Positions 13,627 to 32,537 are shown, counted from the stretch's first letter. The stretch is DNA of 64,000 nt from Bacteroidota bacterium (GCA_021323165.1 JAJTCJ010000001.1:14205-78204); one strand, 5' to 3'. Numbers and translations: made by a program. Notes: a model not told the origin generated them from the sequence alone.

Positions 13627-15195
13627 ATGGAAAGAATAATAAGATCCTGGTGGAAATGTGAACCATTTCTATTCGCACTTTTTGTTCTTATTACTGCAAT
13701 ACCAGTCATCGGTAACCAATATTTTCCTACGGTAGATGGCCCAGCCCACCTGCATAATGCCAATCTTTTAAAACATTATTTTTTTTACAATGATGAATTC
13801 ATTCTTGATTTCTTTGATCTGAATCGTCATTTGAATTCTAATTTCGTAGACCATGTATGGTTCGCGCTGTTTGGATTATTCCTTCCAACTTATTTGGTGG
13901 AAAAAAGTATTCTTCTGTTCTATGTTTTATTTCTCCCGTTTTCTTTTCGCTATCTGGTAAAACAGATTGTTAATGAAAAAAATTCTGCTGCGATCAGTGC
14001 TTATCTTATATTTCCTTTTGTTTACTCATTCACATTCAGGATAGGTTTTTTCAATTTTTGTATGGGGATTCCGGTACTCTTCTGGACATTAGGTTACTGG
14101 ATGAAACACAGGGCAGATTTGAATAAAAGGGAAATCATCTGGCTGACAATTCTTACAACAATTGTTTATGCAACACATATTTTTAATTTTATGTTATTGG
14201 GAATTTTGTTGTTTGTGAATGAGATACAACATGTCATAAACAGGGGAACACTAAAGGGAATTATAAAAACGCTGCGCATTCCTGTACTGATTTTTTTACC
14301 GGGAATTTTATTGACATGCCTATTTCTCCTTTCAAACAGCGCTTTTGAACATGCACCACCCTCTTATCTTTCGAAAGAAAAACTTACAGAAACGCTTATC
14401 AATGTTAGTCCGGCCATTACATTAAGCTATGAAAAAGAAGTTTTATATGCCCGTATAATCGGATGTTCATTGTGTGTTCTGGGCGCATTTGTAATCTATA
14501 CATTTTTTAAGACCAGAAAAAAAAATGTCCCACCCAAGCCGCAGTGGCTGTTTTCTCTGATAGTTGTTCTGTTGTTGTTTTATATTTTCCCCGATTGGAT
14601 TGCGTCCGGTGGATTCATTTCTATTCGTTGGGCCCTATTCTTCTTTCTGGTACTTATTCTTTTAATTGCAGCAAAAGGATTGGCTCCAAAACTGTTGGCA
14701 TTGCCCATAGCTGTTCTTTTAATAAATCATCTTTTCTTTATTGATTACCACAACAAGGAAACTGCAATTTTAAGCGAGTATGCAGAAACACTTGTAAGTG
14801 CGGAAGAATTTATGGATGGAAACAAGCTCTTGCTGCCATTAAATTACTCGCAAAACTGGATGCATATAAATCACGCAAATTATATGGCCACAGAGAAGAA
14901 TATAATCAACCTCGATAATTATGAACCGACAAAACCCCACTTTCCATTGATCTGGAAGCAAGGTGAACAGGTTTATGATCTGATGCAGAAGTATGGAAAC
15001 CGAAATCCGCCATGTATTAACATTGATAATTATGAAAGTAAAACACATCATAGAATAGATTATTTAAGCAGATTCTGTTTTGATGGGAATGTTTCAGATT
15101 CATGCACAGCACTAGTTGAGGCGGAGATAAAATCAAGATTTGACCTGGTCTACACATCCGAAAACAATAAGCTGCAGCTATATAAAAGGAAATGA
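13627..15195 (+). CDS. Polytopic membrane protein, GT-C-like glycosyltransferase (A)
   Basis: About 11 hydrophobic segments, acidic loop motif PTVDGPAHLHNA after TM1, soluble C-terminal domain. Confidence 0.6.
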   Translation: MERIIRSWWKCEPFLFALFVLITAIPVIGNQYFPTVDGPAHLHNANLLKHYFFYNDEFILDFFDLNRHLNSNFVDHVWFALFGLFLPTYLVEKSILLFYVLFLPFSFRYLVKQIVNEKNSAAISAYLIFPFVYSFTFRIGFFNFCMGIPVLFWTLGYWMKHRADLNKREIIWLTILTTIVYATHIFNFMLLGILLFVNEIQHVINRGTLKGIIKTLRIPVLIFLPGILLTCLFLLSNSAFEHAPPSYLSKEKLTETLINVSPAITLSYEKEVLYARIIGCSLCVLGAFVIYTFFKTRKKNVPPKPQWLFSLIVVLLLFYIFPDWIASGGFISIRWALFFFLVLILLIAAKGLAPKLLALPIAVLLINHLFFIDYHNKETAILSEYAETLVSAEEFMDGNKLLLPLNYSQNWMHINHANYMATEKNIINLDNYEPTKPHFPLIWKQGEQVYDLMQKYGNRNPPCINIDNYESKTHHRIDYLSRFCFDGNVSDSCTALVEAEIKSRFDLVYTSENNKLQLYKRK

Positions 15196-15211: not shown

Positions 15212-17116
15212 ATGACAGTAAGAAAACAAAATAGTCCCGCAAACATTGTAATAATTATAATAGCGGTTTTATTGTTCTGTTATACAGCCTTTCGCGCCAT
15301 GATTCTTTCAATCACTTGGGATGAGGCATACACGTATATTGAATTCGCCCGAAACGGAAAAGTGCTTCTTGAAAGTTATGATCTGATGTCGGCCAACAAC
15401 CACATTCTTAATACATGGCTGATGATCCTGTTTACAAAAGCGTTCGGTGTGTCAGAGTTTGTAATGCGCATGCCCGTTTTGTTCACCTACATTTTGTACC
15501 TCTGTTTTTCAGCAAAGCTTGCCGGAAAAATAAACAGGAAATGGTTTTCTGTGACTGCGTTTATTGTTCTGAATGTAAATCCTTACATGATAGATTTTTT
15601 CACTGTTGCAAGGGGATATGGGCTGTCGATCGGGTTGATGATGAGCAGCCTGTATTTTCTTTATCAATTTAATTCGGAGAGAAAGACCAGGAGTGCGGTA
15701 ATCTCATTAATATTCGCAGGAATAGCTGTGTTGGCGAGTTTTGTATTGCTGCATTATTTTCTTGTGTTATTCGGGTTAATAATAATTCTCACTTTTTATT
15801 ATGAACAAGAGAATTCAAAAGAAAGAACAGGACTTATTATTAAGGTGCTGAAAAAGCTTATTGCTCCATTCTTAGTTGCTATTCTTTTGTTTCTTTTTGT
15901 GATTCCTATAACGCTTGATCTGAAAGCAGCCGGAGCTTTGTTCTTTGGAGGGGAAAGAAGTTTCTGGTCGGATACAATCAGTACAATAGTTGACAGATGT
16001 TTTTATGAAATTGGTTACAATTACTGGCTGCAGCGAATAACAAAAGCGTTTATCTTTCTGGTCCTGATTTGTTCTGCGATTTATTTTTGTTTAAAATTTT
16101 TCAAAAAACAACTGAATACTAATACTCTTTTTTTAGGTTCGTGTTTGTTCCTGATCAGTTTTTGCTGTCTGTCAACAGTGGTTCAGCATCATTTAATGGG
16201 AACAGCTTATCTCCTTGACAGAACAGCGCTTTTCCTGGTCATATTGTTTAGTCTTATCTTTGTTTTTTTTATAACTGAGCTATCAGCACAAAGCCCCCTT
16301 TCTGTCTATTTGGTGCATGTTTCAGCGGCATTTATGCTGATCCATTTCTTTTTGTGTTGTAACCTAACCTATGTACTTGAGTGGAGGTTCGATGCAAATA
16401 CAAAGGAGATGCTGTCGGATCTTAATGAGATAAAAGCGGTACCAAAAGGTAAAGAAACGGTTAGTGTTGGGATACCGCTTATTTTCCATCCCGCAACAAA
16501 TTTTTACAGAGAACTAAAAGACTATAGCTGGCTTAATACAACATGGAGGAAAGAAACCAATAATATGCTCCACGATTATTTCTGCATATCAAAAAATGAT
16601 CTGAAAGGTTTTAATATGGATTCTCTGCAAATCATTAAAACATACCCAGGAACGGGAAATATGCTTGCAAGGCCAAGATATCCTGTTAAAGAGTATCACG
16701 CTCAGATTGAAAAAATTCAGACCTTCCCAAATGAAAATGAAGGTCGTTTTATAGTAAATGAAAATGTTGAATACGCACCGGGATTCTCATATATTATAAA
16801 CGATAGTATTACTCCGGATAAAAAAGGTATTGTAGCGTTTTACGCTGAGGTGAAGGCACCGGACAAAGGAAACAATAATCTAATCATGGTAATTTCTTTT
16901 CAGGATGAAAAGGGTTCTTTGTACTCCTGGCAGAAGGCATATGTCAAGGATCTCATTAAAGATGAGGATAATTGGTTCAGAGCGAATTTTACTTGCATTA
17001 TTCCTGCAGAAGCTAAAGGAGGAGACGAGCTCAAGCTTTACATATGGAATCCGGATAAACATCAACTGTTTATAAAAGAGCAGGAATTTAAATGGCTTGT
17101 CCCAGTTTTAAACTAG
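15212..17116 (+). CDS. ArnT/PMT-like GT-C glycosyltransferase with C-terminal CBM-like domain (B)
   Basis: ITWDEAYTY (DE motif), ANNHILNT, DFFTVARGYG, WRFDANTKEML; C-terminal ...ELKLYIWNP. Confidence 0.72.
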   Translation: MTVRKQNSPANIVIIIIAVLLFCYTAFRAMILSITWDEAYTYIEFARNGKVLLESYDLMSANNHILNTWLMILFTKAFGVSEFVMRMPVLFTYILYLCFSAKLAGKINRKWFSVTAFIVLNVNPYMIDFFTVARGYGLSIGLMMSSLYFLYQFNSERKTRSAVISLIFAGIAVLASFVLLHYFLVLFGLIIILTFYYEQENSKERTGLIIKVLKKLIAPFLVAILLFLFVIPITLDLKAAGALFFGGERSFWSDTISTIVDRCFYEIGYNYWLQRITKAFIFLVLICSAIYFCLKFFKKQLNTNTLFLGSCLFLISFCCLSTVVQHHLMGTAYLLDRTALFLVILFSLIFVFFITELSAQSPLSVYLVHVSAAFMLIHFFLCCNLTYVLEWRFDANTKEMLSDLNEIKAVPKGKETVSVGIPLIFHPATNFYRELKDYSWLNTTWRKETNNMLHDYFCISKNDLKGFNMDSLQIIKTYPGTGNMLARPRYPVKEYHAQIEKIQTFPNENEGRFIVNENVEYAPGFSYIINDSITPDKKGIVAFYAEVKAPDKGNNNLIMVISFQDEKGSLYSWQKAYVKDLIKDEDNWFRANFTCIIPAEAKGGDELKLYIWNPDKHQLFIKEQEFKWLVPVLN

Positions 17117-17462
17117 AATATTAATGCTTTTTAATTCATTACACTTTTATTTTTTCTGACCCGGATAAAGGGTTTGATGAATAGTAAAAACCTGCAAAAA
17201 GAAAAAATCTTAATATTGTATTCAATTTAATGGCGGAAAATATAAAGCACGCAGACTCTCTGGTAGGGAAAGATTTAATATATTTGACGCTTCAGAACAG
17301 GGACCTGCTGGTTAAAAAATACAGTTAAAAGGAGTTATTGTTGTAGATACTGGTAGTGGTGCGTAGAAAAGATTTCTGGATCAGAAATGGACAACCGAAA
17401 GAATCTTACGGGAGGGTTTAATGAAAATTTATCTCGTGAATATATAAACTAACACAATAAAA

Positions 17463-18185
17463 ATGCTTATTAAAAAACTTTCGATCGTTATTCCGGCATA
17501 CAATGAAGCCAGAACAATCCATCTTATCCTGAATAAGGTGCTTGCAGTTAAGCTTGTTAATGATATTGAAAAAGAGATCATTATTGTGAATGATTGTTCG
17601 AAAGATGCAACAAAAGAAGTGATTGAAAAATACATTATAGATCATAACGCAAGCAATATCCGTTTGTTTAATCAGGAATATAACCAGGGAAAAGGAGCAG
17701 CGCTGCATAAAGGGATTTCTCTTGCAACTGGCGAGTTTCTGATCATCCAGGATGCCGATCTCGAGTATGACCCCGAAGAATATAATATTCTTTTGAAGCC
17801 AATTATAAATGGCTTTGCAGATGTTGTATTCGGTTCCCGTTTTGCAGGTGGTGAGCCTCATAGGATTCTGTTCTTCTGGCACACCATCGGAAACAAGATG
17901 CTTACTTTCATGTCAAACATGTTTACTAATCTGAATTTATCAGACATGGAAACCTGTTATAAGCTTTTCAAAACAGAAACTATTCAGGCGATCAAACTAA
18001 AAGAAAAGCGCTTTGGATTTGAACCTGAAGTAACTGCAAAGATCTCTCGTGTTCCTAACATTAGAATTTATGAAGTTGGAATTTCATATTACGGCAGAAC
18101 CTATGAAGAAGGTAAAAAAATAGGCTGGAAAGATGGTTTTAGAGCCATTTGGTGTATAATGAAATATAATATATTCTCTAAATAA
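17463..18185 (+). CDS. GT2 polyprenyl-phosphate glycosyltransferase (DPM1-like)
   Basis: [52 protein letters not shown]. Confidence 0.9.
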
Positions 18186-18209
18186 CATAACAAAACAACA
18201 AGAGTAAAC

Positions 18210-18698
18210 ATGAAAACAAAAATCAGCGCGGCAGTTATTGCATTATTCTTTTTAATGGCATGCGGATCTTCGGAACCTAAGCAGGAGGCTGCTCAGAATG
18301 TAGAAGAAGATGTGAATGTAAAATTCATTTTAAAGGCTTCTAATATGATGTTTATAAAAATGGATAAAGACTCTGTTTTAATAGCAAACGAACCTATATC
18401 AACAAACGCTCAGGTCTTCGAAATCGTAGATCTTAATAATGGAAGGTGCGCATTAAAAGTAGCCCCGGGTAAATATGTGGTTGATGACAGAAAGAAAGAA
18501 AACAAGCTTTTTGGCAACAGCCCTAACACATGGGACTGGGAATCATTTGAAATAATTGCCTTAGATCAGACAAAAGTAAACATTAAAGCATCTTCAGGAA
18601 TGTTTGTATGTGCGGACCAAACAGCTGGAAGTTTTCTGAAGGCGGATCGTGCAGGGGCGGGAGATTGGGAAACATTCGAACTTTTGCGCCAAAATTAA
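18210..18698 (+). CDS. Lipoprotein consisting of a fascin-like beta-trefoil domain
   Basis: Lipobox LMAC; repeats of type WESFEI...IKASSGMFVCAD...WETFEL. Confidence 0.78.
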   Translation: MKTKISAAVIALFFLMACGSSEPKQEAAQNVEEDVNVKFILKASNMMFIKMDKDSVLIANEPISTNAQVFEIVDLNNGRCALKVAPGKYVVDDRKKENKLFGNSPNTWDWESFEIIALDQTKVNIKASSGMFVCADQTAGSFLKADRAGAGDWETFELLRQN

Positions 18699-18705
18699 AA
18701 ATCAA

Positions 18706-20640
18706 ATGAACAAAATAATTCTGTTTTTTCAGCAAAAAAGCCTTTTCGTTTTTCTGCTGCTGGTGCTTATTTTATCCCTTATATTTGAGTATCACGAAAC
18801 AACTTTATTGCTTCCTCAGGGTCATCACGACTGGCGCACAACAGATTGCGCCTCCTTTGCCATGATGTATTATGATCACGGGATGAATTTTTTTGAGCCT
18901 AAGGTGTTTAATGTATTAATGGGCGGTGGCCATGCTGCCGGAGAGTTTCCCGGACTTTACTACCTCGTGGCCTGCATGTATAAAATTTTTGGGCCACATG
19001 AGGTTATCTTCAGAGTGTTCTTTCTTTTAATTTTTTATTGCGGCCTTATTGCGTTATTTAAAATAGTTAAAAGGCTTACCCAGGACCTGGTTCTCTCTTT
19101 TGTTATTCCTCTTCTTCTTTTCTCTTCTCCATTGATCATGGTGTTCGGAAACAACTTTTTATGCGACATTCCTTCTTTAAGTATGGCTTTGATCGGCTGG
19201 AATTTTGTTTTTAAATATCGCGATACAACAAGGGAAAAACATTTTTGGTTAGGCATGATGTTCTTTGCTTTTGCAGGACTCTTAAAATTAAACTCCGCGA
19301 TAAGCATGATTGCTTTAGCAGGAATGTTTTTCCTTGAAATGGTTGGCTGGGTTCAATTAGGAAATAATGGAAAAATGTTCAGGAATATTAAAAGCAACAT
19401 TGCAGGCTTTCTTATGGTTGTTGCCGTTGTGGCCAGTTGGTATCTCTGGGCAATACATTATAACGCAGAACATTCTACATCATTTTTGGGAACTCAATCC
19501 TGGCCAGGCTGGCCCATCTGGGAAACAAGCGACTATGATTTCACACGAACGCTAAACCATTTTTTTGAACATGCGAGCTATTTATTTTCCTATATAACGT
19601 GCATAGTTTTAGGCTTCCTTTTGTTTTTTATAATATCAAACAGACAGGTGCTTGATCCATTGCTGTTTGGAACATTAATATTAACTCTGCTGGGTATAAT
19701 AATGTTTGTGTGTATGTTTTATGTCGGTGTGGGCGACAATGTCTATTACATTATTAATTTAATGATATTGCCCGTGTTTATAATGATCACATCTGCACTG
19801 ATCTTTAAAACGCTGTTTCCTCATATTTTTCACTCCGTTTTATTTAAGCTCTTGTTATGTGGTTTCCTTGTTTTTAATGTTACCTATGCGAAAGCCAAGT
19901 TGAAAGTCTTTTATCATGGAGGAAAATATCACTGGAAATCCAACCCGGGTTTTTATGAACCGGAGTTCAGGCCGTTTGTAGATAGCATAGGAGTTAAAAA
20001 AACGGACAAGATCATTAGCTTTCCGGATATAACACCAGATGTTACTCTTTATTTGATTGGCCGTCCGGGATGGAGTGGTTATGATGCCAAAATTGAAGAA
20101 GGAAGCCTTAATCAATGTATTCAAAATGGTGCTCAATACCTGTTTATTAATAATCCTATGCTCTTATTTGATCCGGTTTTGTTGAATTACACCGGAGATT
20201 ATGTTGCAAACTACAAAACGATATTTATTTATAGGTTGTCGTTGCCTTCCAAAAAGAACAACCCATTAAAAGGAGCGCTCAAAGACAGCAATAATCAATA
20301 TCTGACAGTTTCGCCAGAAGGAGCAAAGCCATTAAAAGTTTCAGGTGATTCAACCTCAGCCGAAACATTCACTATACTCCCGTTAGGAAAAGACCTCGTT
20401 GCTATCAGGACGCAGGGAAATAAAATTTTATCATGTGATCTAAATAACGGAGGATTGGTAACAGCTTCCACTGACTGGATTGCAGATTGGGAAATATTCA
20501 AACTTGTTAAAAACGATGATGGAACAATAAGTTTAAAAGGAGCAAACAACAAGTTCATCACAGCTGCAGGCGATAATATTGAAGCTAAATCAGAGCTTCC
20601 GGGACCGTCAGAGAGATTTAAATTAATATTTAAATATTGA
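18706..20640 (+). CDS. ArnT-like GT-C glycosyltransferase with C-terminal fascin-like beta-trefoil (E); start probably 18706
   Basis: HHDWRTTDCAS loop motif, EFPGLYY, many TMs; C-terminal AETFTI...WEIFKL...GANNKFITA repeats. Confidence 0.75.
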   Translation: MNKIILFFQQKSLFVFLLLVLILSLIFEYHETTLLLPQGHHDWRTTDCASFAMMYYDHGMNFFEPKVFNVLMGGGHAAGEFPGLYYLVACMYKIFGPHEVIFRVFFLLIFYCGLIALFKIVKRLTQDLVLSFVIPLLLFSSPLIMVFGNNFLCDIPSLSMALIGWNFVFKYRDTTREKHFWLGMMFFAFAGLLKLNSAISMIALAGMFFLEMVGWVQLGNNGKMFRNIKSNIAGFLMVVAVVASWYLWAIHYNAEHSTSFLGTQSWPGWPIWETSDYDFTRTLNHFFEHASYLFSYITCIVLGFLLFFIISNRQVLDPLLFGTLILTLLGIIMFVCMFYVGVGDNVYYIINLMILPVFIMITSALIFKTLFPHIFHSVLFKLLLCGFLVFNVTYAKAKLKVFYHGGKYHWKSNPGFYEPEFRPFVDSIGVKKTDKIISFPDITPDVTLYLIGRPGWSGYDAKIEEGSLNQCIQNGAQYLFINNPMLLFDPVLLNYTGDYVANYKTIFIYRLSLPSKKNNPLKGALKDSNNQYLTVSPEGAKPLKVSGDSTSAETFTILPLGKDLVAIRTQGNKILSCDLNNGGLVTASTDWIADWEIFKLVKNDDGTISLKGANNKFITAAGDNIEAKSELPGPSERFKLIFKY

Positions 20641-20653
20641 AGCAACCTCGTGT

Positions 20654-22453
20654 ATGATGGGATATATTGAAAAAAACTATAAAAAGCTGGTCATCATTAC
20701 AGGCTGTTTATTTTTTTCCTATTTCCTGTTTCTTTCATGGATCTATTACAAAGAGAGAGTACTGTCTTTTGATCCTGCATTTTTTGCATTTCAAATAATA
20801 GACACTCAGAATTACAGCATTGCACTGGGGCGCTGGGGTGCTATATTTTCTCAGATCCTTCCTTTGATTGCCCTTAAGAGCAACTGCAGCATGGAAACCT
20901 TCCTCCGGTTGTTTTCCATTGCACCAATTATTAACTACATAATTGTTTTTCTCATAATAATCGCATTAAAGAATTATCGCGCAGCAATAGCGCTAATGCT
21001 TGTATTGTGCCTTGGCTTCAGACATGCATTTTATTATACCACCGCAGAACTTTATTTCGGGCTGGCACTATCGGTTTTATTTTGGGCAATTATCGCTCCT
21101 GAAAAGGAATATGATACTGCTATTAAAAAATGGCTGGCTTTGCTTTTTTCTATTGTACTGATCTATATAATGTCTTATTTACATCAGCTTACTGTATTCG
21201 CAATTGTTTTTATTCTAATATGGGAGTTTATATCCGGAAACAAATATAAAGATGTAAGATTGTGGATGATTTTTGCTGCTGCTAGTATCTGGTTTTATAT
21301 TCGAATATTTGTGCTTACTAACACAGAATATGAAAGCGAAAAGATACCAAGTTTATCCGTTTTTATAGAACAGCTGCCCTTTATACGATACTCTCCCAGC
21401 GGGATGTATTTTAAGCACTATGCAAAGTATGAGATCTGGCCTTTATTTCTGGTGTTTTTCATTTCCTGGATCTATTTATTTAAAATGAAAAAATGGTTGA
21501 ATGTTTTGTTCCTTCCTGCTTTTTCTATCGCTTTCTTAGTTCTTATTCTTATAACTTATTATAAAGGCGAGTCAGCATTGATGTATGAGAATTATTACAC
21601 AGTATTTGGTGTATTTGCAGGAATAGCATTCATGTATGTGTTATACAACAATGTAAGCGAAAAATGGCGCTTATTATGGATCATACCATTGTTGGTGATT
21701 AGTGTGCATGGTATTCATAACGCGCATGCAAGCTTTACGAAAAGGGTTGACTACCTGGATCGTCTTGTTTCCGAAGGCAGAAAGCACGAGAAGAAAAAAT
21801 TTCTGGTCAGTTCTCAAAATTTTCCCTGGCAATATGGATGGGTACATTGGGCATTGCCTTTCGAGACTACTTTATATTCTGCTATTGCCGGAGCGGATTC
21901 AGTGGTAACTTGTTTTGTCACTCCTGAGATCGACAAATATGATTCATTGATAAATAAAGAGAATGTTTTTCTTGGACCTGAATGGGCGGTAACATGGTTT
22001 GAGAGTCACCATCTTAAACAGAACTACTTTCGTTTTCCCTCTTCGGGATATGCAAAATTAAATACAAGTCAGGCAGATAGCGCTTTTCACGAAAGCGATT
22101 TCGACAAAGGGAATATTTTGATAAAACCTTTACAGGATACTTATTATTCGGATGCTGACTCTTTTATTGTGGCTGAAATAGAAATAACCAATCTTCTTTA
22201 TAAAACATTTGCGTCAATTCCTAAGGGAAACAATCCGGTATTCTTAAGCTATCACATAGAGCAGGGAGGGAAAACGGTTGTATTTGACGGGAAAAGAACG
22301 CCCCTTGAAGCTGACTTAAAAGGCAAAATCATTCAAAGCATAATGGTCACACTTCCGGAAAAAAAAGGAGATTATACAGTTGAGGTGGATCTTGTTACTG
22401 AAAATAAGCGGTGGTGGGAAATAAGGAGTAAATTCAAGCTGATTGTCAGATAA
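20654..22453 (+). CDS. Polytopic GT-C-like protein with C-terminal Ig-like domain (F)
   Basis: LSFDPAFF loop motif, about 11 TMs; C-terminal VFLSYH...DGKRTPL...GDYTVEVDLVTENKRWW beta-sandwich pattern. Confidence 0.6.
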   Translation: MMGYIEKNYKKLVIITGCLFFSYFLFLSWIYYKERVLSFDPAFFAFQIIDTQNYSIALGRWGAIFSQILPLIALKSNCSMETFLRLFSIAPIINYIIVFLIIIALKNYRAAIALMLVLCLGFRHAFYYTTAELYFGLALSVLFWAIIAPEKEYDTAIKKWLALLFSIVLIYIMSYLHQLTVFAIVFILIWEFISGNKYKDVRLWMIFAAASIWFYIRIFVLTNTEYESEKIPSLSVFIEQLPFIRYSPSGMYFKHYAKYEIWPLFLVFFISWIYLFKMKKWLNVLFLPAFSIAFLVLILITYYKGESALMYENYYTVFGVFAGIAFMYVLYNNVSEKWRLLWIIPLLVISVHGIHNAHASFTKRVDYLDRLVSEGRKHEKKKFLVSSQNFPWQYGWVHWALPFETTLYSAIAGADSVVTCFVTPEIDKYDSLINKENVFLGPEWAVTWFESHHLKQNYFRFPSSGYAKLNTSQADSAFHESDFDKGNILIKPLQDTYYSDADSFIVAEIEITNLLYKTFASIPKGNNPVFLSYHIEQGGKTVVFDGKRTPLEADLKGKIIQSIMVTLPEKKGDYTVEVDLVTENKRWWEIRSKFKLIVR

Positions 22454-22464
22454 AAAATCGAAAG

Positions 22465-24249
22465 ATGTCTATTAAAAGATTTTTAAAACTTAACAGCACA
22501 ACCATTATCTGGCTGATCGTGTTTTCCTGGGTGTGTATAATCGGTTCATCCAGACATTGGGAAAAGAACCTGATCAGCAATGATGTTGTTTCTTATTATG
22601 GTTATCTGCCAGCAGCCATAATTCACCATGATATAAAATTGGATTTCATTGTCGGACATGATGAATATGCCGGAAAATATTGGCCTGAGAATGCACCTAA
22701 TGGCGGAAGGGTAATAAAAACCACAATGGGTTTGTCTTTTTTGTACCTCCCCTTTTTTTTAACAGGCCATGCAATAGCCAAGGTTTTCGATTATCCTGCT
22801 GATGGTTATTCGGCACCCTATTTAATTCTTATGCTACTCAGTTGTTTGTTTTACCTGGTTATCGGATTTCATTTTTTACGCAAGCTCCTGCTGATTTTTT
22901 TTACAGATGGAATTACTTCGCTTACCATGGCCTCTGTGTTTTTTGGAACGAATTTACTTTGGTATGCAACATTCGATGGGCTGATGTCTCACGCTTACCT
23001 GTTTACTATTCTTATTGTTTTTATTTACCTGGTTGTGAAATGGCACCAGGAACAACAACTTAAGACAGCAATTTTAATAGGACTCTCCGGAGGATTAATG
23101 ACATTGATCCGCCCAACGATGATTGTTTGTTTTGTGATTTTTGCACTTTATTCAGTTTATGATAAGCAATCTTTTACGGCAAAATTAAAACAACTTACAG
23201 GCAGACCATTTCATCTGGTGATTATTGCTTTATGTGCTTTTATTGTTCTTCTTCCTCAGCTGGCCTACTGGAAATACATTACAGGAAATTTCTTTTTCTT
23301 TTCTTATGTGGGTGAACGTTTTTACTGGAACAATCCACACATTATCGAAGGGCTGATTGGTTTCAGAAAAGGCTGGTTATTATATACACCAATAATGGTC
23401 TTTGCGATAGCAGGCGTTTTCTATATGCGGAAAAATGTACCGGAATTTTTATTGTCGGTTGCCATTCTTTTGCCGTTGTTAATTTATGTTTTCTTTTCCT
23501 GGTGGGCTTGGTGGTATGGAGGCTCTTTCGGATTAAGGGCATTTGTAGATTATTACGGGTTGCTTGCGATTCCGCTAGCAAGTTTTTATACACAAGCTTT
23601 CCAGGCGAAATTTAAAAAAATTAAATGGGTAGTGGCAACAGCAGCGTTTCTTCTGATCTTTTTAAACATGTTTCAAACCTGGCAATTCAACAAAGGACTG
23701 ATCCATTATGATTCAATGACAAAAGAATCATATATACTGGGTTTTGGGATGAAACATCATACTGCGGAATGGTATGATGCCTTGGAGGCACCGGATTATA
23801 ACCGTGCACGGAAAGGGATTTCAGAAACATATTCTGAAGAAGAAATAAAAAATATTACAGCCGCGAACCAGATCAGGTTCAAAGGGTTTAATAATTTATT
23901 TGTGACTTGCGAGATTGCCGGAAGGAAGGAGCTTACTTCAACGCGAAACGAACCGAGTGAATGGGAAACATTTTCTTTTGTGCCCTTAGGAAATAACAAA
24001 GTGGCAATAAAAGTGGCAGACGGCAATTATATAAGTGCTGAAACTGAAATGACAGATAAACTTTATGGAAATAAGCCGGAAATAGGAAGTCAAGAAACTT
24101 TTGAATTGATTTATTTGGGAAACAACCGCTTTGCACTTAAGGCAGCTAACGGAAAATATGTTCATGTTAATTCGAAAGATCCATTCCTTCTGAAAGTGAA
24201 TGCCAAGTCCATTGGCAAGAGGGAAAAATTACGGATATATATAAATTAA
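22465..24249 (+). CDS. GT-C-like glycosyltransferase with C-terminal fascin-like beta-trefoil (G)
   Basis: NDVVSYYGYLP, LIRPT, FRKGWLLYTP, WWAWWYGGSFGLR; C-terminal WETF/QETF repeats with ALKAANGKYV. Confidence 0.75.
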   Translation: MSIKRFLKLNSTTIIWLIVFSWVCIIGSSRHWEKNLISNDVVSYYGYLPAAIIHHDIKLDFIVGHDEYAGKYWPENAPNGGRVIKTTMGLSFLYLPFFLTGHAIAKVFDYPADGYSAPYLILMLLSCLFYLVIGFHFLRKLLLIFFTDGITSLTMASVFFGTNLLWYATFDGLMSHAYLFTILIVFIYLVVKWHQEQQLKTAILIGLSGGLMTLIRPTMIVCFVIFALYSVYDKQSFTAKLKQLTGRPFHLVIIALCAFIVLLPQLAYWKYITGNFFFFSYVGERFYWNNPHIIEGLIGFRKGWLLYTPIMVFAIAGVFYMRKNVPEFLLSVAILLPLLIYVFFSWWAWWYGGSFGLRAFVDYYGLLAIPLASFYTQAFQAKFKKIKWVVATAAFLLIFLNMFQTWQFNKGLIHYDSMTKESYILGFGMKHHTAEWYDALEAPDYNRARKGISETYSEEEIKNITAANQIRFKGFNNLFVTCEIAGRKELTSTRNEPSEWETFSFVPLGNNKVAIKVADGNYISAETEMTDKLYGNKPEIGSQETFELIYLGNNRFALKAANGKYVHVNSKDPFLLKVNAKSIGKREKLRIYIN

Positions 24250-24273
24250 TTTTGCTAACACGTAATTAATCAG

Positions 24274-26157
24274 ATGAGAATTACTAAAGAGCCTGCAAAG
24301 AAAACCACTGCGAGATATTCCTTAATTGTAATGATCGCAATCGTAGGGTGGCTGAGTGCAACATCTTTTAATAAAACAGAGAACCCAATGTCATGGGACC
24401 TGTTTGGTTATTATCTGTATTCTCCTGCAATAATTATCTGGGATGATCCTGCGCTTAAGGATTTCTCAAAGGTTGAAGAAACGAATGCGAAGTATCACAA
24501 TACTCCTTCTTTTTATCAGGGAAGCAAAACAGAGAACGGATCCTGGATGATCAAATATACCCTGGGCTCTGCTCTAATGGAGCTTCCGTTTTTTATGACA
24601 GCTCATTTTATTGCACCTTCCCTGGGCTATGAACAAGATGGTTTTTCTGAACCCTATCAGCAGGCAATGATCCTGTGTCATTTTTTTTACCTTATAGTCG
24701 GAGTTGTTTTTCTGAGGAAAGTTGTTCTTAAATTCTTTTCTGATAAAATTACCGCCTTCCTGCTGGTTCTAATATTGCTGGGCACAAATTATTATATCAC
24801 ATCGGGCGGTGTTTCCATACATACAATGGAGTTCTCTTTGTTTTCTATTATACTGTATCTCACGATCCGGTGGCATGAAGACCCGAAAAGATCACTTGCT
24901 ATACTATTAGGACTGTGTGTGGGACTTTCGATTATCGTAAGGCCAACTGATGGTTTAATAGCCCTGATTCCCATTTTATGGAATGTTACTTCTGTTAAAA
25001 CGTTCAAAGAAAAAATTAAATTTTACTTTTCAAATTATAAATTTCAACTACTTCTGATCATCGTTTTCTGTTTCGCAATTGTTTTTCTACAAATGTGGTA
25101 TTGGAAAACGGTAAACGACACCTGGCTGATCATGAGTTACAATAATAATGCAGGGGAGGGATTCGAGTTTTTACAACCATATCTTCTTGAGGTTTTATTC
25201 AGCTTCAGAAAGGGTTGGTTTATTTATACACCACTGATGATATTAGCGACCATCGGTTTTATCCAAATGTATAAAAAGAACAAAAAAATATTCTATGCTG
25301 TTTTTATATTTTTTCTTTTAAATGTATACGTGGTTTCCAGTTGGAGCTGCTGGTGGTATGCCGGATGTTACGGTCAGCGTGCAATGGTTGAATCTTATGC
25401 TGTTTTAATTTTACCACTTGGATATTTTATTGAAGGCACTCTTTCCTCTCAAAAAGCGATTGTAAGGTGGGGTTCACTGATTCTTATTTTACTTCTTTTG
25501 GGATTAAATATTTTTCAGAGCTGGCAGTATGACAATGGAATCCTGCATGGCGACCGGATGACCCGCAGTTATTATTTCAAAATTTTCGGAAAAACAAAAG
25601 TAGAAGATGAGCACAAAAAATTATTGTTAGTTGACCGGTCTCAGGGAGGCATCGAGCATTTCTCACAGGAAGGAGATTATAACAAAAGGCTTTTGTTTAT
25701 GGATGATTTTGAAACTATAGAAGGAAACAAAGATCAATATGTTGATTCCGTCTTAAGAAATGGCAAATTTTCCATTAAAGTCGACAGTAATTTTATATTC
25801 ACACGGAACAATGAGCTGCCTTATAATCTGATCACACGAAAAGATCATGCATGGATCCGCACCTCTTTTTGGTATTATACAAGAGCAAACCTTCTGGATA
25901 ACAGGCTTGGTTTAGTGGTTACATTTACAAATAAGAAAGGGGAGGCTTATAAATACAGTGTTGTTGATATCGGAACTCAGGCGGGCGATCAAGCCAGTCC
26001 CGGGCAATGGATTAAATACACTGTAGATTATCTAACGCCCGAAGTGCGTGATGAGAACGATAAGCTTAATATTTATTTCTGGCTGAGAGGTAAGCAGCCG
26101 GTTTATATTGACGATTTCAAGGTAGAAGCGTATGAGCGGAAAGAAGCAGGTAAATAA
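24274..26157 (+). CDS. GT-C-like glycosyltransferase, paralog of 22465, with C-terminal CBM-like domain (H)
   Basis: WDLFGYYLYSP, IVRPT, FRKGWFIYTP, WSCWWYAGCYGQR; C-terminal DDFE...GQWIKY...KLNIYFW...YIDDFKVE. Confidence 0.75.
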   Translation: MRITKEPAKKTTARYSLIVMIAIVGWLSATSFNKTENPMSWDLFGYYLYSPAIIIWDDPALKDFSKVEETNAKYHNTPSFYQGSKTENGSWMIKYTLGSALMELPFFMTAHFIAPSLGYEQDGFSEPYQQAMILCHFFYLIVGVVFLRKVVLKFFSDKITAFLLVLILLGTNYYITSGGVSIHTMEFSLFSIILYLTIRWHEDPKRSLAILLGLCVGLSIIVRPTDGLIALIPILWNVTSVKTFKEKIKFYFSNYKFQLLLIIVFCFAIVFLQMWYWKTVNDTWLIMSYNNNAGEGFEFLQPYLLEVLFSFRKGWFIYTPLMILATIGFIQMYKKNKKIFYAVFIFFLLNVYVVSSWSCWWYAGCYGQRAMVESYAVLILPLGYFIEGTLSSQKAIVRWGSLILILLLLGLNIFQSWQYDNGILHGDRMTRSYYFKIFGKTKVEDEHKKLLLVDRSQGGIEHFSQEGDYNKRLLFMDDFETIEGNKDQYVDSVLRNGKFSIKVDSNFIFTRNNELPYNLITRKDHAWIRTSFWYYTRANLLDNRLGLVVTFTNKKGEAYKYSVVDIGTQAGDQASPGQWIKYTVDYLTPEVRDENDKLNIYFWLRGKQPVYIDDFKVEAYERKEAGK

Positions 26158-26184
26158 ATAGACAATAGAAAGTTAAAACATACT

Positions 26185-28076
26185 TTGAACGAAACCGGGC
26201 AAAAAAAGAAGAACAAATTTTTATACATAGGAACTGTATGTGCTATTATATTGTTTTCTTTTTTGTATTACGCTCCTTGTAATTTTTGGGACTATAGCTC
26301 AGATCAGGCTATTCACGTTCTGATGGCGAAAACCTTTCAACTTCCCCGAGATTTTTATTATTGGGGACAAAACAGACTGGGCAGTTTATTGCCTATGGTA
26401 GCATCTCTATTTGGCAGAGTATTTCCCGTACATACTTTATATATATGTTCATTTGTCCAATACGCTTTTTTATTTACCGGATTTTACCTTATTTCAACTC
26501 AACTCAAAAGTCCTCTTTTGAAAATCGCCATATGCGCTGTCATATTTATGCCTGTCAATGAATATATATATCTGGTAGAGCTCGGACATCCATACTCTTC
26601 ACAGTTATTTGCAGGAAGCATTTTTATTTATATGTGTTCTGCTCTAAGAAAATATTTACTTGCGAATCGCCAATTCGGATTAAAACAATTACTTATTTCG
26701 GTGTTATTGAGCTTCGGTAGTTCATTCTTCTTTTTAGTAGGAATATGGGTCTCCGAATTTAATGCAGTCTTAGTTTTAATTCCGATGATATTTATTTTAA
26801 AGGAGAAGGAGTTAAGAACAATTATTTTGGAAAGATTCCGGAATATTTATTTTATAATTTTTGAACTTTTGTTGTTAGTATTATTCATCAGTACACTTCA
26901 TTTTTATAAGCTAATAAAAGCAAATGGCCTTGAGGATGAGGCATACAATAAAGTCTTTCTTGACAATGCCCAGGATATAGGGAAAAATGTTGATTTTTTT
27001 CTTGCAAGGCTTAAAGCAAGTTTACTTTTTACAGATCCTCACCCGTTTGAGAATTTTTTTAACTGGTATTTAATTATTTTTTCAGGGATAATATTTGTCA
27101 TTTTAAAAACAAACAAACGCGTTCAAAAATCAACATTGATCTATTCATTGCTTGTGGTATGTACTGTTTCAACGATAATGTTGTTTTGTTCAATCTGGAA
27201 TTTAAGGAGCGATTTCCGCCCTAGATATTTTACACCGGTCTATATTATATTTTGCTTTATTCTTTTGTTGTTTGCAGATCAGGCTTATTTTAAAAAATAT
27301 GCAAAATTTGTGGTTTCTCTCCTTTTTGTTTTTTTTGGAGTTGTATATTGTTACAGTTCTTCAATAAGCAAAAAATTCCTGGCCCATTTGAATTGTATGG
27401 TGAATATCAAAAATTACCAAGAGGAACAATAATAGGTCGATATTGGGATGTGTATTTAATAAATTCAGTTGCAATTGATAGTTTACAGTCCTTGCCCTTT
27501 GAAGGCGAACTTATCAGGAATTATGAGTGGAGAAACCTGCCATTAAAAGAAACAAACTTCTATCTTCTTAATAACGGTAAGGGGTTCCCGGGCGGCTTAA
27601 CTGATATTGTTTTCCAGCATGGCTTTCTTTTGAAGAATTCGGGAATAAAATATATTTGTAATGGAACAGAAGTGTTGCTTTATCACAAACTTTATCCGAT
27701 AAAAAAATTCATAATTAAAGCTGCAAATAATCAATATGTTTCTGTTGACTCTCAAACAAATTTGCTTACTGCAAACAAATCTATTTCAGAGGCAGAGGTT
27801 TTTGAACTAACCGCGACTATGAATGGAACCGCATTAAAAGCATCAAACGGGAAATTCGTGTCGGCAGATTTGGCAGGAAATGGAAACCTGGCAGCGAAGA
27901 GCGACAATGCAAATGGTTGGGAAATTTTTCAGATTATTGAACATGATGGTAAGAAAATTAGTTTGCGAACAACAAATGATAAATTTGTAAGTGCCAACTT
28001 ATCTGATAATGCTGTTATGACCGCAAACAGAGACAAAGCATCCGATTGGGAAATATTTCAACTGGAACCAAGATAG
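26185..28076 (+). pseudogene. Frameshifted GT-C-like glycosyltransferase plus fascin-like beta-trefoil (I); ORFs 26185-27432 and 27348-28076
   Basis: SSDQAIHVLMA and YYWGQNRLGS in the TM part; the -1 frame (open from 27294) carries the periplasmic and trefoil domains. One extra base in T8 (27329-27336) or A6 (27370-27375) gives one 630-aa ORF. Confidence 0.72.
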
Positions 28077-28125
28077 AAACACGGGGGAATGCGAAGGATA
28101 TTATGCTTTGGATTAATAATCCATA

Positions 28126-30111
28126 TTATTTTATCACTTTAAAAGTAAAAGTTTCCCAACCTCCCGGATTATCCCGGCTTGCAGTTAATGTATCACCATG
28201 CGGTGAGTACCCGCAAACATATTTATTTAAAGAGGATTTAATAGTTACTTTATAAAAGCCTTCATATGTTATCTCGAAGGTTTCCCATTCGTTTATCTGA
28301 TCCCTGTTTGCATATAGATAGCCTGTTTTTGCATCCCTGTCTTCGCAGACAAACTTACCCTGAGATGTTTTAAGTGCAGAAAAGCCATTTCCTAAATCAA
28401 TTTGCTCAAAAACTTCAGCTTTCAATGGATCTGTCTGATTTGCAACCAATAAATGATCATTAGTAACTGAAAGATAATTTTTGTTATGTGCCTGAATGAT
28501 AAATTTTTCTCCTTTATCAACTCGTCCTAAAGGCATCCAATGATTTATAGAGTCGTTGAAATATTGATTTCCCTTTGTGTCAATTTTAATTAATGAACAC
28601 CGTGAATAAGCAAACTCTTTTAGCATTTCCAGTTTAACATGAGCTTTCTTTAGTTCCTCCACAAGAAACATGTCCACATAATAATAGTCAATTCCAGGGA
28701 AAATTAATCCTCTGATATTAAACTCCATGTTTTTATGGCAAAAAGTTTCCGCGTCATAATAATAAGGGTTTAATTCTTCCAGTTCTAAAGGATATTCCCA
28801 GGCTTTAGCGACTTGTTTAACAGAAAGAGAATCATAATTTAGCCGGCTTTTATAAAAACTCACTGAGGGGTAACGGATATATTCAATTCCAAGTAATGTA
28901 TTCCCGGGATGGTTTTCTTTTAAATAGGTTAACATGTCTTTCGTTCCCGCTTCATAACGCCACGAATAACAATATTTAAAATTCAGACAAAAAATGAAAT
29001 GCGTTAAAAGAAGGAAAAATATGATTCGATTAACCACATTTAAAATGTTGTTTTGAAAAAGAAATATTCCATAGAACAAAACGAGGATCATAAGTGGATA
29101 ATACATAATAGCCGTTCTTTCTGCCGGATAATGAGTTTGAAAAAGTATGTGTTGTGCCAGGGGGGATAACAATGAGCCTAAAAACAACAGGGATAAGCAG
29201 TTTATCACATTAAACTTTTTGACTCTTACTAATAGGTATAAATGATAAAGGGCTATCATTATCGCTGCAGAGAACATTATAATGAATATTATTTTTGCTA
29301 CATGACTATAACTTTTAAAGTATCCAAAGCATGTCCCTAAAGAGCAAATGGTGTCATGAAATAAGTTATTCCTCCCCCCAAACATAAGGTGCCCTCCGTT
29401 TTTTAACTGAAGGAGAGTGGGAAGAAGTAAACAAATGAAGCCTGCTGTTAAAATAACTATCAGGCCGGTTTTTATCAAAATATTTTTAGAAGTGTTTCCT
29501 GAAAACACAATCAGTAATATCAAAATTGCTGTGAGGGGAAGAAAAAAATTGAGCAATGTGAAATTAGCAACAACGGCCACCATTCCTGCAAACAAAGCAA
29601 CAATAGCAGATACAAAAAGTTTTTTTCTGCAGAATGTAAGCAAATAGCACAGGCTTAAAAGCATAAAAGCCAAACCCATGCCATATCCTCTTGCCAAACT
29701 AAAAAAGTCTAACAGAAACGGCATCGCAGTCAGAAGAACCAGAATGTAAGTTTTATACTCGGGTTTTATAAGAGTGGCAATTTTTATGCTGGCAAACAGA
29801 TATATTATAAAGGCCAGGACATTTGGTAATCGGATAACAAAGGCTGAGTCACCTAAAAGGGCGGTCGATGCCTTCATTAATAAACTATTCAATATATGAT
29901 AGTTTGCAGATTCGCCCATGGTTGACAATGAAAAGCCATTCAATGTTTCAAATGAAATGATTTCATCATACGTCAGAGACAGATTGTTGGCTCGAACAGC
30001 GACATAAAGAAAAAGCAATAGGGCATAGATTCCAAGCAAATATTGTTTAACAGGTCCTGGAGAGCTAACGTCTAATTTGAGGTCAACGTTTAAGTTTTTA
30101 CCTGAAGTCAT
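28126..30111 (-). CDS. ArnT/PMT-like GT-C glycosyltransferase, paralog of 15212, with C-terminal fascin-like beta-trefoil (J)
   Basis: LTYDEIISF, ANYHILNS, DFFSLARGYG, WRYEAGTKDML; three AEVF/WETF trefoil repeats. Confidence 0.75.
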   Translation of the reverse strand: MTSGKNLNVDLKLDVSSPGPVKQYLLGIYALLLFLYVAVRANNLSLTYDEIISFETLNGFSLSTMGESANYHILNSLLMKASTALLGDSAFVIRLPNVLAFIIYLFASIKIATLIKPEYKTYILVLLTAMPFLLDFFSLARGYGMGLAFMLLSLCYLLTFCRKKLFVSAIVALFAGMVAVVANFTLLNFFLPLTAILILLIVFSGNTSKNILIKTGLIVILTAGFICLLLPTLLQLKNGGHLMFGGRNNLFHDTICSLGTCFGYFKSYSHVAKIIFIIMFSAAIMIALYHLYLLVRVKKFNVINCLSLLFLGSLLSPLAQHILFQTHYPAERTAIMYYPLMILVLFYGIFLFQNNILNVVNRIIFFLLLTHFIFCLNFKYCYSWRYEAGTKDMLTYLKENHPGNTLLGIEYIRYPSVSFYKSRLNYDSLSVKQVAKAWEYPLELEELNPYYYDAETFCHKNMEFNIRGLIFPGIDYYYVDMFLVEELKKAHVKLEMLKEFAYSRCSLIKIDTKGNQYFNDSINHWMPLGRVDKGEKFIIQAHNKNYLSVTNDHLLVANQTDPLKAEVFEQIDLGNGFSALKTSQGKFVCEDRDAKTGYLYANRDQINEWETFEITYEGFYKVTIKSSLNKYVCGYSPHGDTLTASRDNPGGWETFTFKVIK

Positions 30112-30194: not shown

Positions 30195-30728
30195 CTAATC
30201 CTTATAAAAAGAATAAGAAATATCGTCAAACAAAAAAGCATTCTTTCCTTTGTTCCAGATATATAATTTTAAGAAACATTCAGGCCGGATGTCTTTTTTA
30301 TTTACTTTATAACTTATGGTAATTGTTTCCCATGCATTGAATTTTGCAGGAACGATTGGTCTCCCATCCCAAAAAATATTCTTTTTTGATATGCTGTCAT
30401 CATCAATGGCCAACACAAATGTTGCATCAGGATACTTTTTATCCATGAAACATTTAAATGAAACTTCTATGTGGTCAATACTTTCATAAGATGGAATGTG
30501 TTTAATTTCCTTTATCGGGCCATATCCATACTCGATCTTATCACTTAATGATCCGCTTTTTCTGCCTGAAAAGGCTTTGGTTGAATCGATCCGGGAATCG
30601 GCAACGGATTCAAAATCATGATATTCATGATAAAGCAGCGTTGAGTTTTCGTGTGTATCCGTCTTTTTATTTTTGCAGGACGATAAAACAAGAATGCTGC
30701 CCAGAACAAGAAGAAGATTAAAGCGCAT
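30195..30728 (-). CDS. Lipoprotein consisting of a CBM-like beta-sandwich domain
   Basis: Lipobox LSSC; HDFES...AFSGRKSG...NAWETI...LKLYIWNKGKNAFLFDDI resembles the C-termini of 15212 and 24274. Confidence 0.72.
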   Translation of the reverse strand: MRFNLLLVLGSILVLSSCKNKKTDTHENSTLLYHEYHDFESVADSRIDSTKAFSGRKSGSLSDKIEYGYGPIKEIKHIPSYESIDHIEVSFKCFMDKKYPDATFVLAIDDDSISKKNIFWDGRPIVPAKFNAWETITISYKVNKKDIRPECFLKLYIWNKGKNAFLFDDISYSFYKD

Positions 30729-30731
30729 AAA

Positions 30732-32537
30732 TTAAAGGGTTATAAATTGTTTTTTACGTTCTATTGAAGCTTTAATATCATCAAGCTGTCCTTTTGGAAT
30801 GGCTCCGATAAGATTTTTGGTATAATCCGTCTGAGGGTTGTTGTAAATGTTGTCCGCATCTCCCATTTCTTCAACTTTTCCTTTATTCATAACTACCATA
30901 CGGTCGCTCATGAATTTTACCACTGACAGATCATGTGAAATAAAAATGTAAGTGAAATCAAATTCACGTTTAAGCTCATTCAGTAGATTTAATACCTGGG
31001 CCTGGACAGAAACATCCAATGCTGATACAGACTCGTCACAGATAATGAATTTCGGCTTTAATGCGATGGCGCGGGCAATGCAGATACGCTGGCGTTGTCC
31101 GCCTGAAAATTCGTGAGGATAACGGTAAAAATGACTTTCATTCATGTTTACACGATGAAGAAGCTCGATCACTCTTTCTTTTCTTTCCTTGTCATTTGCC
31201 AGGATGCCATGAACCTGCATTGGTTCCATTATCGCCTGTCCGATAGTTATACGTGGATTTAAAGAAGAATAAGGATCCTGAAATATGATCTGAATATCTT
31301 TTCTTAGCTCACGCATTTCAGTATTGCTGATCTTTGTAATGTTCTTTCCGTTAAATATAACTTCACCGCTTGTCGGTTCGATAAGGCGAAGCACAGTCCT
31401 TCCAAGTGTTGTTTTTCCGCATCCTGATTCACCTACCAAGCCAAGAGTTTCACCCGGGTAAACATCAAAAGAAACGTCATCAACAGCTCTTACAAAATCC
31501 TTCGCCTTTCCAAAAACTCCTTTGTTAATCGGAAAGTATGTTTTCAAATTCCTGATCTCAAGTATCGGTTTTTTTGAATATAATGTCTTGTGAGCTTCTT
31601 CCCGTTGTTCTTTTGTAACAACAAGCCTGTTGGTTACCTCTGCAACAGATGAATTACTTTCAACCATTTCACCGGTTTCACTCGTATTCATGAAGTCGCT
31701 TACGGTAGGGAGCCATTGCAAACGTTTGCTCAGTGGAGGTCGGCAAGCCAGAAGACCTTTTGTATAAGGATGCTGAGGATTCGAAAAGATCTCAAGTGCA
31801 CTTCCCTGTTCAACGATCTTTCCTTTATACATAACAACCACCTTATCAGCCAGTTCTGCAATAACACCCAGATCATGTGTGATAAACATGATTCCCATAT
31901 CATGCTCACGCTGAAGCTTCAGCATAAGATCCAGTATAGTTGCCTGCACGGTTACGTCAAGAGCGGTTGTGGGTTCATCGGCAATAAGAATGCTCGGATT
32001 ACAGCTCATCGCCATTGCGATCATTACACGCTGTTTTTGTCCGCCAGAGATCTGGTGAGGATAGCTCTCAAAAATATTTTCGGGACGAGGAAGCTGAACT
32101 GTTTTGAACAGCTCGATTGTTCTGTCCTTTGCTTCTTTTTTTGTGCATTTCTGATGCAGCAAGATAGCTTCCATTACCTGGTCACCGCAAGTGTAAACAG
32201 GATTAAGTGAAGTCATTGGTTCCTGGAAGATCATTGCAATTTCGTTACCTCTGAGGGTACGCATTTCTTTTTCAGAAAGCTTCGCAATATCAACAGGTCC
32301 GCGGGTTTTAGAATGATAGATAATTTCTCCGCCTGTTATTTTTCCGGGAGGATTTGGAATCAGGCGCATCACGGAAAGAGATGTTACTGATTTTCCGGAT
32401 CCTGATTCGCCAACAATACCAACAGTTTCACCACGTGCAAGAGTGAATGAGATATTGTTTACCGCCTTAACGGTTTCGTCTTCCGTACGAAATTCAGTAA
32501 CAAGATTTTTGATCTCAAGTAAAACTTCTTTAGCCAT
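30732..32537 (-). CDS. Dipeptide/oligopeptide-type ABC transporter ATP-binding protein with two fused NBDs
   Basis: [16 protein letters not shown] and [24 protein letters not shown]. Confidence 0.93.

Follow-up and report, generated by a model that had tools for sequence, protein, structure and literature searches.

Glycosyltransferases of the GT-C fold that end in a carbohydrate-binding module (CBM) have already been described in mycobacterial arabinan synthesis and in the decoration of O-antigen by GT136, with one kind of tail per enzyme family. The C-terminal CBM of EmbC binds the acceptor (PMC3044687), and in GT136 ORF12 of Citrobacter youngae a C-terminal CBM of about 150 residues binds the unmodified acceptor O-polysaccharide (PMC11127046). 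The combination of a GT-C core with a β-trefoil is known from the eukaryotic PMTs (GT39), which carry the MIR trefoil (PMC7759382). We analyzed a 64,000-nucleotide stretch, referred to here as the window, from a Bacteroidota bacterium (GCA_021323165.1, JAJTCJ010000001.1:14205-78204), in which a run of genes for polytopic membrane proteins lies at 13.6-30.7 kb. Four of these genes, g15212, g22465, g24274, and g28126, encode two pairs of GT-C or GT-C-like cores, and in each pair one protein ends in a β-trefoil and the other in a CBM-like β-sandwich (jelly roll). An earlier note on this DNA had regarded the arrangement as a two-by-two domain swap by which one chemistry is targeted to two acceptors or locations. 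We found that the tails were added separately to tail-less cores of about 450-500 residues, and that the two-by-two arrangement is one sample of a recurrent mix-and-match, not a reciprocal swap.

The cluster resembles EmbA, EmbB, EmbC, and AftD in that a polytopic GT-C core is followed by an extracytoplasmic CBM-like β-sandwich and that several paralogous GT-C enzymes appear to serve one pathway; EmbA and EmbB were also the best structural matches of the g24274 model. Unlike the Emb and Aft enzymes, the cluster proteins are about 600-660 residues long rather than about 1050-1100, their jelly roll is like CBM22 or CBM16, half of the cluster enzymes bear a trefoil, the phylum differs, and profile searches found no sequence similarity between the two groups. 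With the three-component extracytoplasmic glycosylation system of GT136 ORF12 the cluster shares a candidate polyprenyl-phosphate sugar synthase and a GT-C enzyme with a C-terminal tail, at a similar size (652 residues for ORF12). However, that system has one GT-C enzyme, one tail type, and a MATE flippase, whereas the cluster has about eight GT-C-like genes and no recognizable flippase, and its two tail folds both occur as free lipoproteins too. The PMTs also join a GT-C core to a non-cytoplasmic β-trefoil, and the cores studied here give weak matches to PMT_2, but MIR sits in a luminal loop and belongs to another trefoil family (MIR versus fascin/FRG1/DUF7910), and the acceptors of PMTs are proteins. 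The jelly roll shares its fold with CBM22, CBM16, and CBM4_9 of glycoside hydrolases; in contrast to those modules, it falls under the sequence-family thresholds, is attached to synthases and lipoproteins, and forms a large family of its own.

Core pairs and GT-C identity

All four open reading frames are present in the window: g15212 (15212..17116, plus strand), g22465 (22465..24249, plus), g24274 (24274..26157, plus), and g28126 (28126..30111, minus). The motifs that had been quoted for the four proteins were all found in their translations. The cores of g15212 and g28126 (family A) were 33% identical over 435 residues (E 2e-44) and those of g22465 and g24274 (family B) 35% identical over 459 residues (E 1e-78), in agreement with the paralogy proposed for each pair. 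The accompanying idea of the same catalytic cores carrying out one chemistry is not supported by these values, since cores at 33-35% identity may differ in donor, acceptor, or linkage.

A full-length AlphaFold-type model was made for family B only. The model of g24274 (predicted local distance difference test score, pLDDT, 90.5; predicted template-modeling score, pTM, 0.86) consists of 13 helices followed by a β domain at residues 466-627. Its best structural matches in the PDB were EmbA/EmbB (E 1e-5), PglB, ArnT (template-modeling [TM] score 0.46), STT3, ALG12, AftA, and Pmt4; the alignment to EmbA/B spanned about 800 columns, and Pmt4 ranked 29th. As modeled, the family B core has the GT-C fold. 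The family A core (residues 1 to about 440 in g15212) appears GT-C-like, judging from Pfam matches and a weak profile link to families B and C. In family A, 37 of 62 members matched PMT_2 (PF13231; gathering cut-off 26.1 bits), as did 6 of 50 in family B, and two family A orthologues carry the NCBI name "glycosyltransferase family 39 protein." Within the window, only g18706, the family C core, passed this cut-off (27.6 bits); Pfam and NCBIfam scans of the cores of the four proteins gave sub-threshold matches only. An acidic residue follows the first transmembrane helix in both families. D37 and E38 (in T-W-D37-E38 of g15212) are nearly invariant among 62 family A sequences, D42 is invariant among 50 family B sequences, and both partners of each pair retain theirs. 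Other conserved features of the family B core, as numbered in g24274, are R223-P224, FRKGW, and WxxWWY.

Two tail folds on several cores

The jelly-roll tails lie at residues ~481-634 of g15212 (window 16652-17113, plus strand) and 466-627 of g24274 (window 25669-26154), and a free version is encoded by g30195 (30195..30728, minus), a lipoprotein. By direct BLAST the two tails matched only marginally (22% over 73 residues). Profiles built from orthologues of the family A and family B tails matched each other with 99.05% probability (E 2.2e-18, 117 columns), and the g30195 profile matched both (94.7% and 96.7%, E 6e-8 and 3e-10). All three sandwich profiles gave less than 0.5% against the trefoil profile. 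By profile comparison, then, the tails of g15212 and g24274 and free g30195 are homologous, a relationship on which the earlier note depended.

An AlphaFold model of the g24274 tail was all-β (pLDDT 93, pTM 0.87). Its nearest PDB structures by Foldseek were CBM22 (4xup, 4xuo), CBM16 (2zex, 3oeb), and CBM61, with E values of 6e-5 to 1e-3 (6e-5 to 4e-4 for CBM22 and CBM16) and TM scores of 0.5-0.59; the closest solved folds also include lectins, and nearly all are glycan binders. The modeled sandwich tail is CBM-like by fold and outside the named CBM families. An alignment (A1) of 40 modules from the window and related loci showed a DFE-like start, a near-invariant Trp, and a Y-I-W-N...I-D-D end; we take the DFE-like start and I-D-D-like end to resemble the CBM4/9/22 type. 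W114, Y136, and W138 are nearly invariant in A1, which is compatible with either a cleft-lining or a core role. A search of the module profile against 1.84 billion representatives returned 4488 clusters at 50% identity, 2257 of them at E <= 1e-10, and the family had no Pfam match at the gathering cut-off. The best 149 matches include free proteins of about 170-250 residues and single, double, or triple C-terminal copies on family B cores. About 45 of these 149 are proteins of about 750 residues in which two copies lie in tandem at the N-terminus, hydrophobic segments are few, and a GT-C core is absent (P0332-P0349 and similar). For these two-module proteins, Pfam gave only FG-GAP repeats, in P0339, and P0332 matched nothing among PDB sequences.

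The trefoils lie C-terminally, after the last transmembrane helix, at residues ~463-594 of g22465 (window ~23851-24246) and ~530-661 of g28126 (window 28129-28524, minus strand). The g28126 tail matched Pfam Fascin with 25.4 bits (cut-off 23.1), and the g22465 tail matched DUF7910 with 38.4 (cut-off 35) and FRG1 with 35.6 (cut-off 27); none of these families is MIR. The trefoils of g18210 and g27348 were likewise above trefoil Pfam cut-offs. In sequence comparison the g28126 tail aligned to that of g22465 in three registers, each offset by about 44 residues. The assignment of one trefoil and one sandwich to each pair was borne out by these cut-offs and by the sandwich profile match.

The alternation of tails is no coincidence, but the two pairs to which the proposed swap had been confined show only a part of it. 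A search of the whole assembly for paralogs outside the window found a family C core with a sandwich (C54:25045-27012, plus), the counterpart of trefoil-bearing g18706, and additional family B cores with a sandwich (C96:600-2393, minus), with a trefoil (C124:14244-16100, minus), and without a tail (C118:3045-4343, minus). One further tail-less copy of core B is split by an in-frame stop (C75:35305-36544, minus). Both tail types are therefore found on at least three families of cores (A, B, and C), a fourth core (F) has the trefoil, and tail-less forms also occur. The same core-tail pairings are retained in the syntenic clusters L001, L003, and L004 and in the genomes G004, G014, and G018. Among 41 related genomes, the sandwich module was found in 31, with at most 10 matches each, and the DUF7910 trefoil in 12.

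Evolutionary history of the tails

The family A tree (152 rows, midpoint-rooted) contains 104 tail-less members of about 480-510 residues. All sandwich-bearing forms fall in a single clade of 46 rows, and the deepest split of the tree separates g15212 from g28126. g28126 groups with P0237, its only full-length orthologue in 5.8 billion proteins (57% identity), and the two are nested in a tail-less clade whose members of about 500 residues are 35-49% identical to g28126, compared to 33% for g15212. A second trefoil fusion in family A, L021, lies in another tail-less clade. In a tree of the trefoils, free lipoprotein forms of the g18210 type make up a clade that includes the g28126 trefoil, and the g22465 trefoil sits apart from it in a group from family B only. 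Taken together, these data indicate that in family A the jelly roll joined once and early, and that the trefoil was gained late, in the g28126 lineage, its source being a copy from the lineage of free trefoil lipoproteins. The g28126 fusion is recent and rare.

Family B trees were built from 84 rows from 41 genomes, with a careful tree of 50 rows. The sister group of the g24274-type sandwich clade (support 100/99) is a trefoil clade (81/93), which spans the subfamilies of the g22465 and C124 types as well as some tail-less proteins, and a tail-less protein is basal to the two clades together. The other half of the family repeats this arrangement, with a C96-type sandwich clade next to a trefoil clade as its sister. 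In approximately unbiased (AU) tests, a single origin of all sandwich-bearing family B cores was rejected (p 2e-5), as was a single origin of all trefoil-bearing family B cores, although the latter value (p 7e-45) is inflated by tail-less rows nested in the trefoil clade. The AU rejections and the repeated sister clades indicate that family B cores gained, lost, or exchanged their tails on several occasions, at least twice for each type.

The sandwich modules themselves group by host core, with 5 changes on the module tree against a minimum of 4, and family A and family B sandwich tails are only 15-22% identical, so a recent transfer of the sandwich between the families is not supported. Recent duplication within this genome was also considered as the source of the pairs and was rejected; same-tail orthologues of all four genes occur in other assemblies. 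The window genes are 57-88% identical to these relatives, far above their identity to their partners in the window.

Tail location and proposed function

In the modeled g24274 helices, K/R-rich loops alternate in a positive-inside pattern. This topology would place the N-terminus inside and D42, R223-P224, FRKGW, WxxWWY, and the tail outside. Both tail folds also occur as signal-peptide lipoproteins (g18210, ...LMAC; g30195, ...LSSC), which is an independent argument for work outside the cytoplasm. From the topology and the lipoprotein forms, we infer that the tails are extracytoplasmic. What stood of the proposed modular targeting is this evolutionary modularity, that is, separable extracytoplasmic modules with free lipoprotein forms on several GT-C cores; an exchange between the two pairs did not.

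A GT2 gene at 17463..18185 (plus strand, 240 residues) resembles polyprenyl-phosphate sugar synthases, namely AglJ, ArnC, PpgS, and a Dol-P-hexose transferase, all below curated cut-offs. We propose that this cytoplasmic GT2 enzyme makes a polyprenyl-phosphate sugar, the lipid-linked donor, and that several polytopic GT-C-type transferases would use it in the periplasm to build or decorate an envelope glycan. By analogy with EmbC, AftD, and GT136 ORF12, each tail would hold the acceptor or the growing glycan near the active site, and the type of tail carried would tune which intermediate or glycan feature the enzyme acts on. This analogy makes periplasmic binding of an acceptor glycan the likely function of the tails. 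In the window, fusions of the trefoil are found with cores A, B, C, and F, and relatives carry it on AlgX-like proteins encoded next to MBOAT genes. This distribution suggests that the trefoil is the shared binding module of the pathway and recognizes a common polymer. The jelly roll may recognize another feature or state of the glycan.

We assign a probability of roughly 0.6 to this whole account, that is, a periplasmic GT-C pathway with acceptor-holding tails that were attached separately and repeatedly. Several observations weigh against it. The GT136 CBM is dispensable in vivo, so a tail need not set specificity (PMC11127046). The pathway is predicted from the genes of an uncultured metagenome-assembled genome (MAG), and no flippase was evident in the cluster, for which no dedicated search was made. 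The CBM likeness is one of fold (TM scores 0.55-0.59), with sequence links below threshold. Pfam CBM_4_9 matched 2 of the 40 module members (best E 0.0015), and the module profile reached the CBM22 of Xyn10C among PDB sequences at E 0.017. On the side of the cores, the profile link of family A is weak (80% probability to B, 89% to C), and the four proteins are under the PMT_2 cut-off (16.9 bits for g15212, 18.8 for g22465, no match for g24274 and g28126). Searches of PDB sequences with the family A and B profiles found no GT-C chain and gave no sequence membership of GT53, GT136, or kindred CAZy families. As for the history of the tails, the groups in the AU tests were named after the tree had been seen, the module trees are short, with weak support for their deep branches, and trees cannot separate gain of a tail from its replacement.

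Alternative explanations

A true reciprocal swap, in which recombination between paralogs after duplication exchanged the tails and left one chemistry directed at two acceptors, would explain why both tail types occur within each pair. It is also in keeping with the two places in family B where sandwich and trefoil clades are sisters, a pattern that fits replacement of a tail soon after duplication. However, the partners are only 33-35% identical and each is nearer to tail-less proteins, the clade of g22465 and g24274 has a tail-less basal member, the family A and family B sandwiches are as divergent as described above and follow their host cores, and the g28126 trefoil clusters with free lipoprotein trefoils rather than with those of family B. 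We consider such a swap improbable, and it is disfavored in family A in particular. The separate phylogenies of cores and modules that the earlier note had called for thus gave a divided answer, with family A tails that arrived separately and family B trees that leave room for early replacement after duplication.

Two other readings concern what the tails do or what the enzymes are. The tails could be modules of protein-protein assembly or anchoring, not glycan binders, through which the GT-C enzymes dock with one another, with the free lipoproteins, or with a partner in the outer membrane and so form a multi-enzyme complex. Both tails are also present in the cluster as conserved free lipoproteins, the sandwich occurs in tandem in many proteins other than GT-C enzymes, one of them with FG-GAP repeats, and eukaryotic fascin-type trefoils are binders of actin rather than of sugars. 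On the other hand, the solved folds nearest to the sandwich (CBM22, CBM16, CBM61, and lectins) nearly all bind glycans. In relatives, the same trefoil is found on AlgX-like polysaccharide-modifying proteins, at the position where Pseudomonas AlgX carries a CBM. DUF7910 is, moreover, the trefoil of plant GH5_14 glycosidases (PMC12656318). Docking as the role of the tails is therefore a minor possibility, if a slightly better one than the swap. The enzymes could also be PMT-type protein O-glycosyltransferases, with tails that read protein or glycopeptide acceptors in the manner of the MIR trefoil of eukaryotic PMTs. PMT_2 is the sole Pfam family matched by the cores, the NCBI name of two family A orthologues refers to family 39, and PMTs do carry a β-trefoil (PMC7759382). 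PMT_2 is a broad GT-C model, however, and Emb, PglB, and ArnT are better structural matches than Pmt4. The trefoil here is C-terminal and of the fascin type and is not a loop-inserted MIR, and the syntenic clusters contain MBOAT and AlgX-like genes for polysaccharide O-acylation. Of the three alternatives, this one seems the least probable to us.

A more speculative reading is that the two unrelated lectin folds are interchangeable reader modules that order a periplasmic multi-GT-C assembly line. Each tail would read the product of an earlier step, the free lipoproteins would serve in trans for hand-off or retention, and new steps would arise by fusion of a copy of a free reader to a tail-less core, a route of the kind seen for g28126. 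The gene order fits such a scheme, in that trefoil-bearing g28126 has the free jelly roll as its neighbor and g15212, with a jelly roll of its own, precedes the free trefoil. We regard this reading as quite unlikely.

The gene cluster and its neighbors

The window has about 37% G+C, and its nearest named relatives are uncultured Bacteroidota/Bacteroidia MAGs. The cluster, of about 17 kb, is kept in some uncultured Bacteroidota. It begins with g13627 (13627..15195, plus strand), which encodes a tail-less polytopic membrane protein of 522 residues (core E) with no Pfam match and no detectable relation to cores A-C. A core E gene was always directly upstream of a g15212-type gene, often overlapping it (L006, L007, L010, L011, L012, L016, L017, and L020). 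The two genes form a conserved pair that may act together. The GT2 gene follows g15212 and is itself followed by g18210 (18210..18698, plus), the free DUF7910/fascin-like trefoil lipoprotein with the lipobox ...FFLMAC. The next gene, g18706 (18706..20640, plus), encodes the family C core with its C-terminal trefoil. Its open reading frame opens at GTG 18649, overlapping the 3' end of g18210; ATG 18706 (MNKIILFF...) is the likelier start, with orthologues of 643-645 residues.

Downstream of it, g20654 (20654..22453, plus) encodes a membrane protein of 599 residues (core D). It is kept in syntenic clusters, including its C-terminal region of about 120 residues (about 22100-22450) in L001, L003, and L004. 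This region matched neither the trefoil profile, the jelly-roll profile, nor Pfam, and it could be a third kind of tail. Beyond the family B genes, g26185 and g27348 (together 26185..28076, plus) encode core F (415 residues) and a trefoil (242 residues) in overlapping open reading frames of different frame. An intact core F protein with the trefoil, of 642-648 residues, is present in the syntenic clusters and in relatives (L015:9119-11044, minus strand; L023:1993-3936). g26185 and g27348 are two parts of one gene, frameshifted probably in or beside the A6 run at 27371-27376, either by a true frameshift or by a homopolymer assembly error. Cores D, E, and F had no profile similarity to A, B, or C and are hence not called GT-C.

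At the far end, g30195 (lipobox ...LSSC) adjoins a g28126-type gene in L001 and L004 as well. A double ABC ATPase fusion with an oligo_HPY domain (30732-32537, minus) is directly upstream of g30195, as it is in L004 and probably in L001, and may be tied to the glycan system, for example in export.

The syntenic clusters also add MBOAT genes beside AlgX-like proteins, some of which bear the same trefoil. In L001 (688-3149), L003 (1513-4020), and L004 (4471-6806), an MBOAT gene and a gene for a protein of about 350 residues separate the g15212 orthologue from the gene that follows it in the cluster, which is GT2 in L001 and L004. L003 also has fusions of AlgX-like proteins to the trefoil next to further MBOAT genes (15575-21720). 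In the window, the gap at this position (17117-17462) is only 346 bp, so the probable O-acylation module is lacking there.

Significance

Against the background of described GT-C enzymes with binding tails, what is new here is a C-terminal fascin/DUF7910 trefoil on bacterial GT-C enzymes, and the alternation, over at least three families of paralogous cores, of two unrelated folds that both also occur as free lipoproteins. The fusion in g28126 is datable, being young enough for its donor lineage to be traced. A jelly-roll module family of about 4500 clusters at 50% identity, outside the Pfam gathering cut-offs, has also been defined. These proteins offer a natural experiment on whether a membrane glycosyltransferase owes specificity, processivity, or localization to its binding tail, and the cluster points to a putative envelope glycan pathway in uncultured Bacteroidota.

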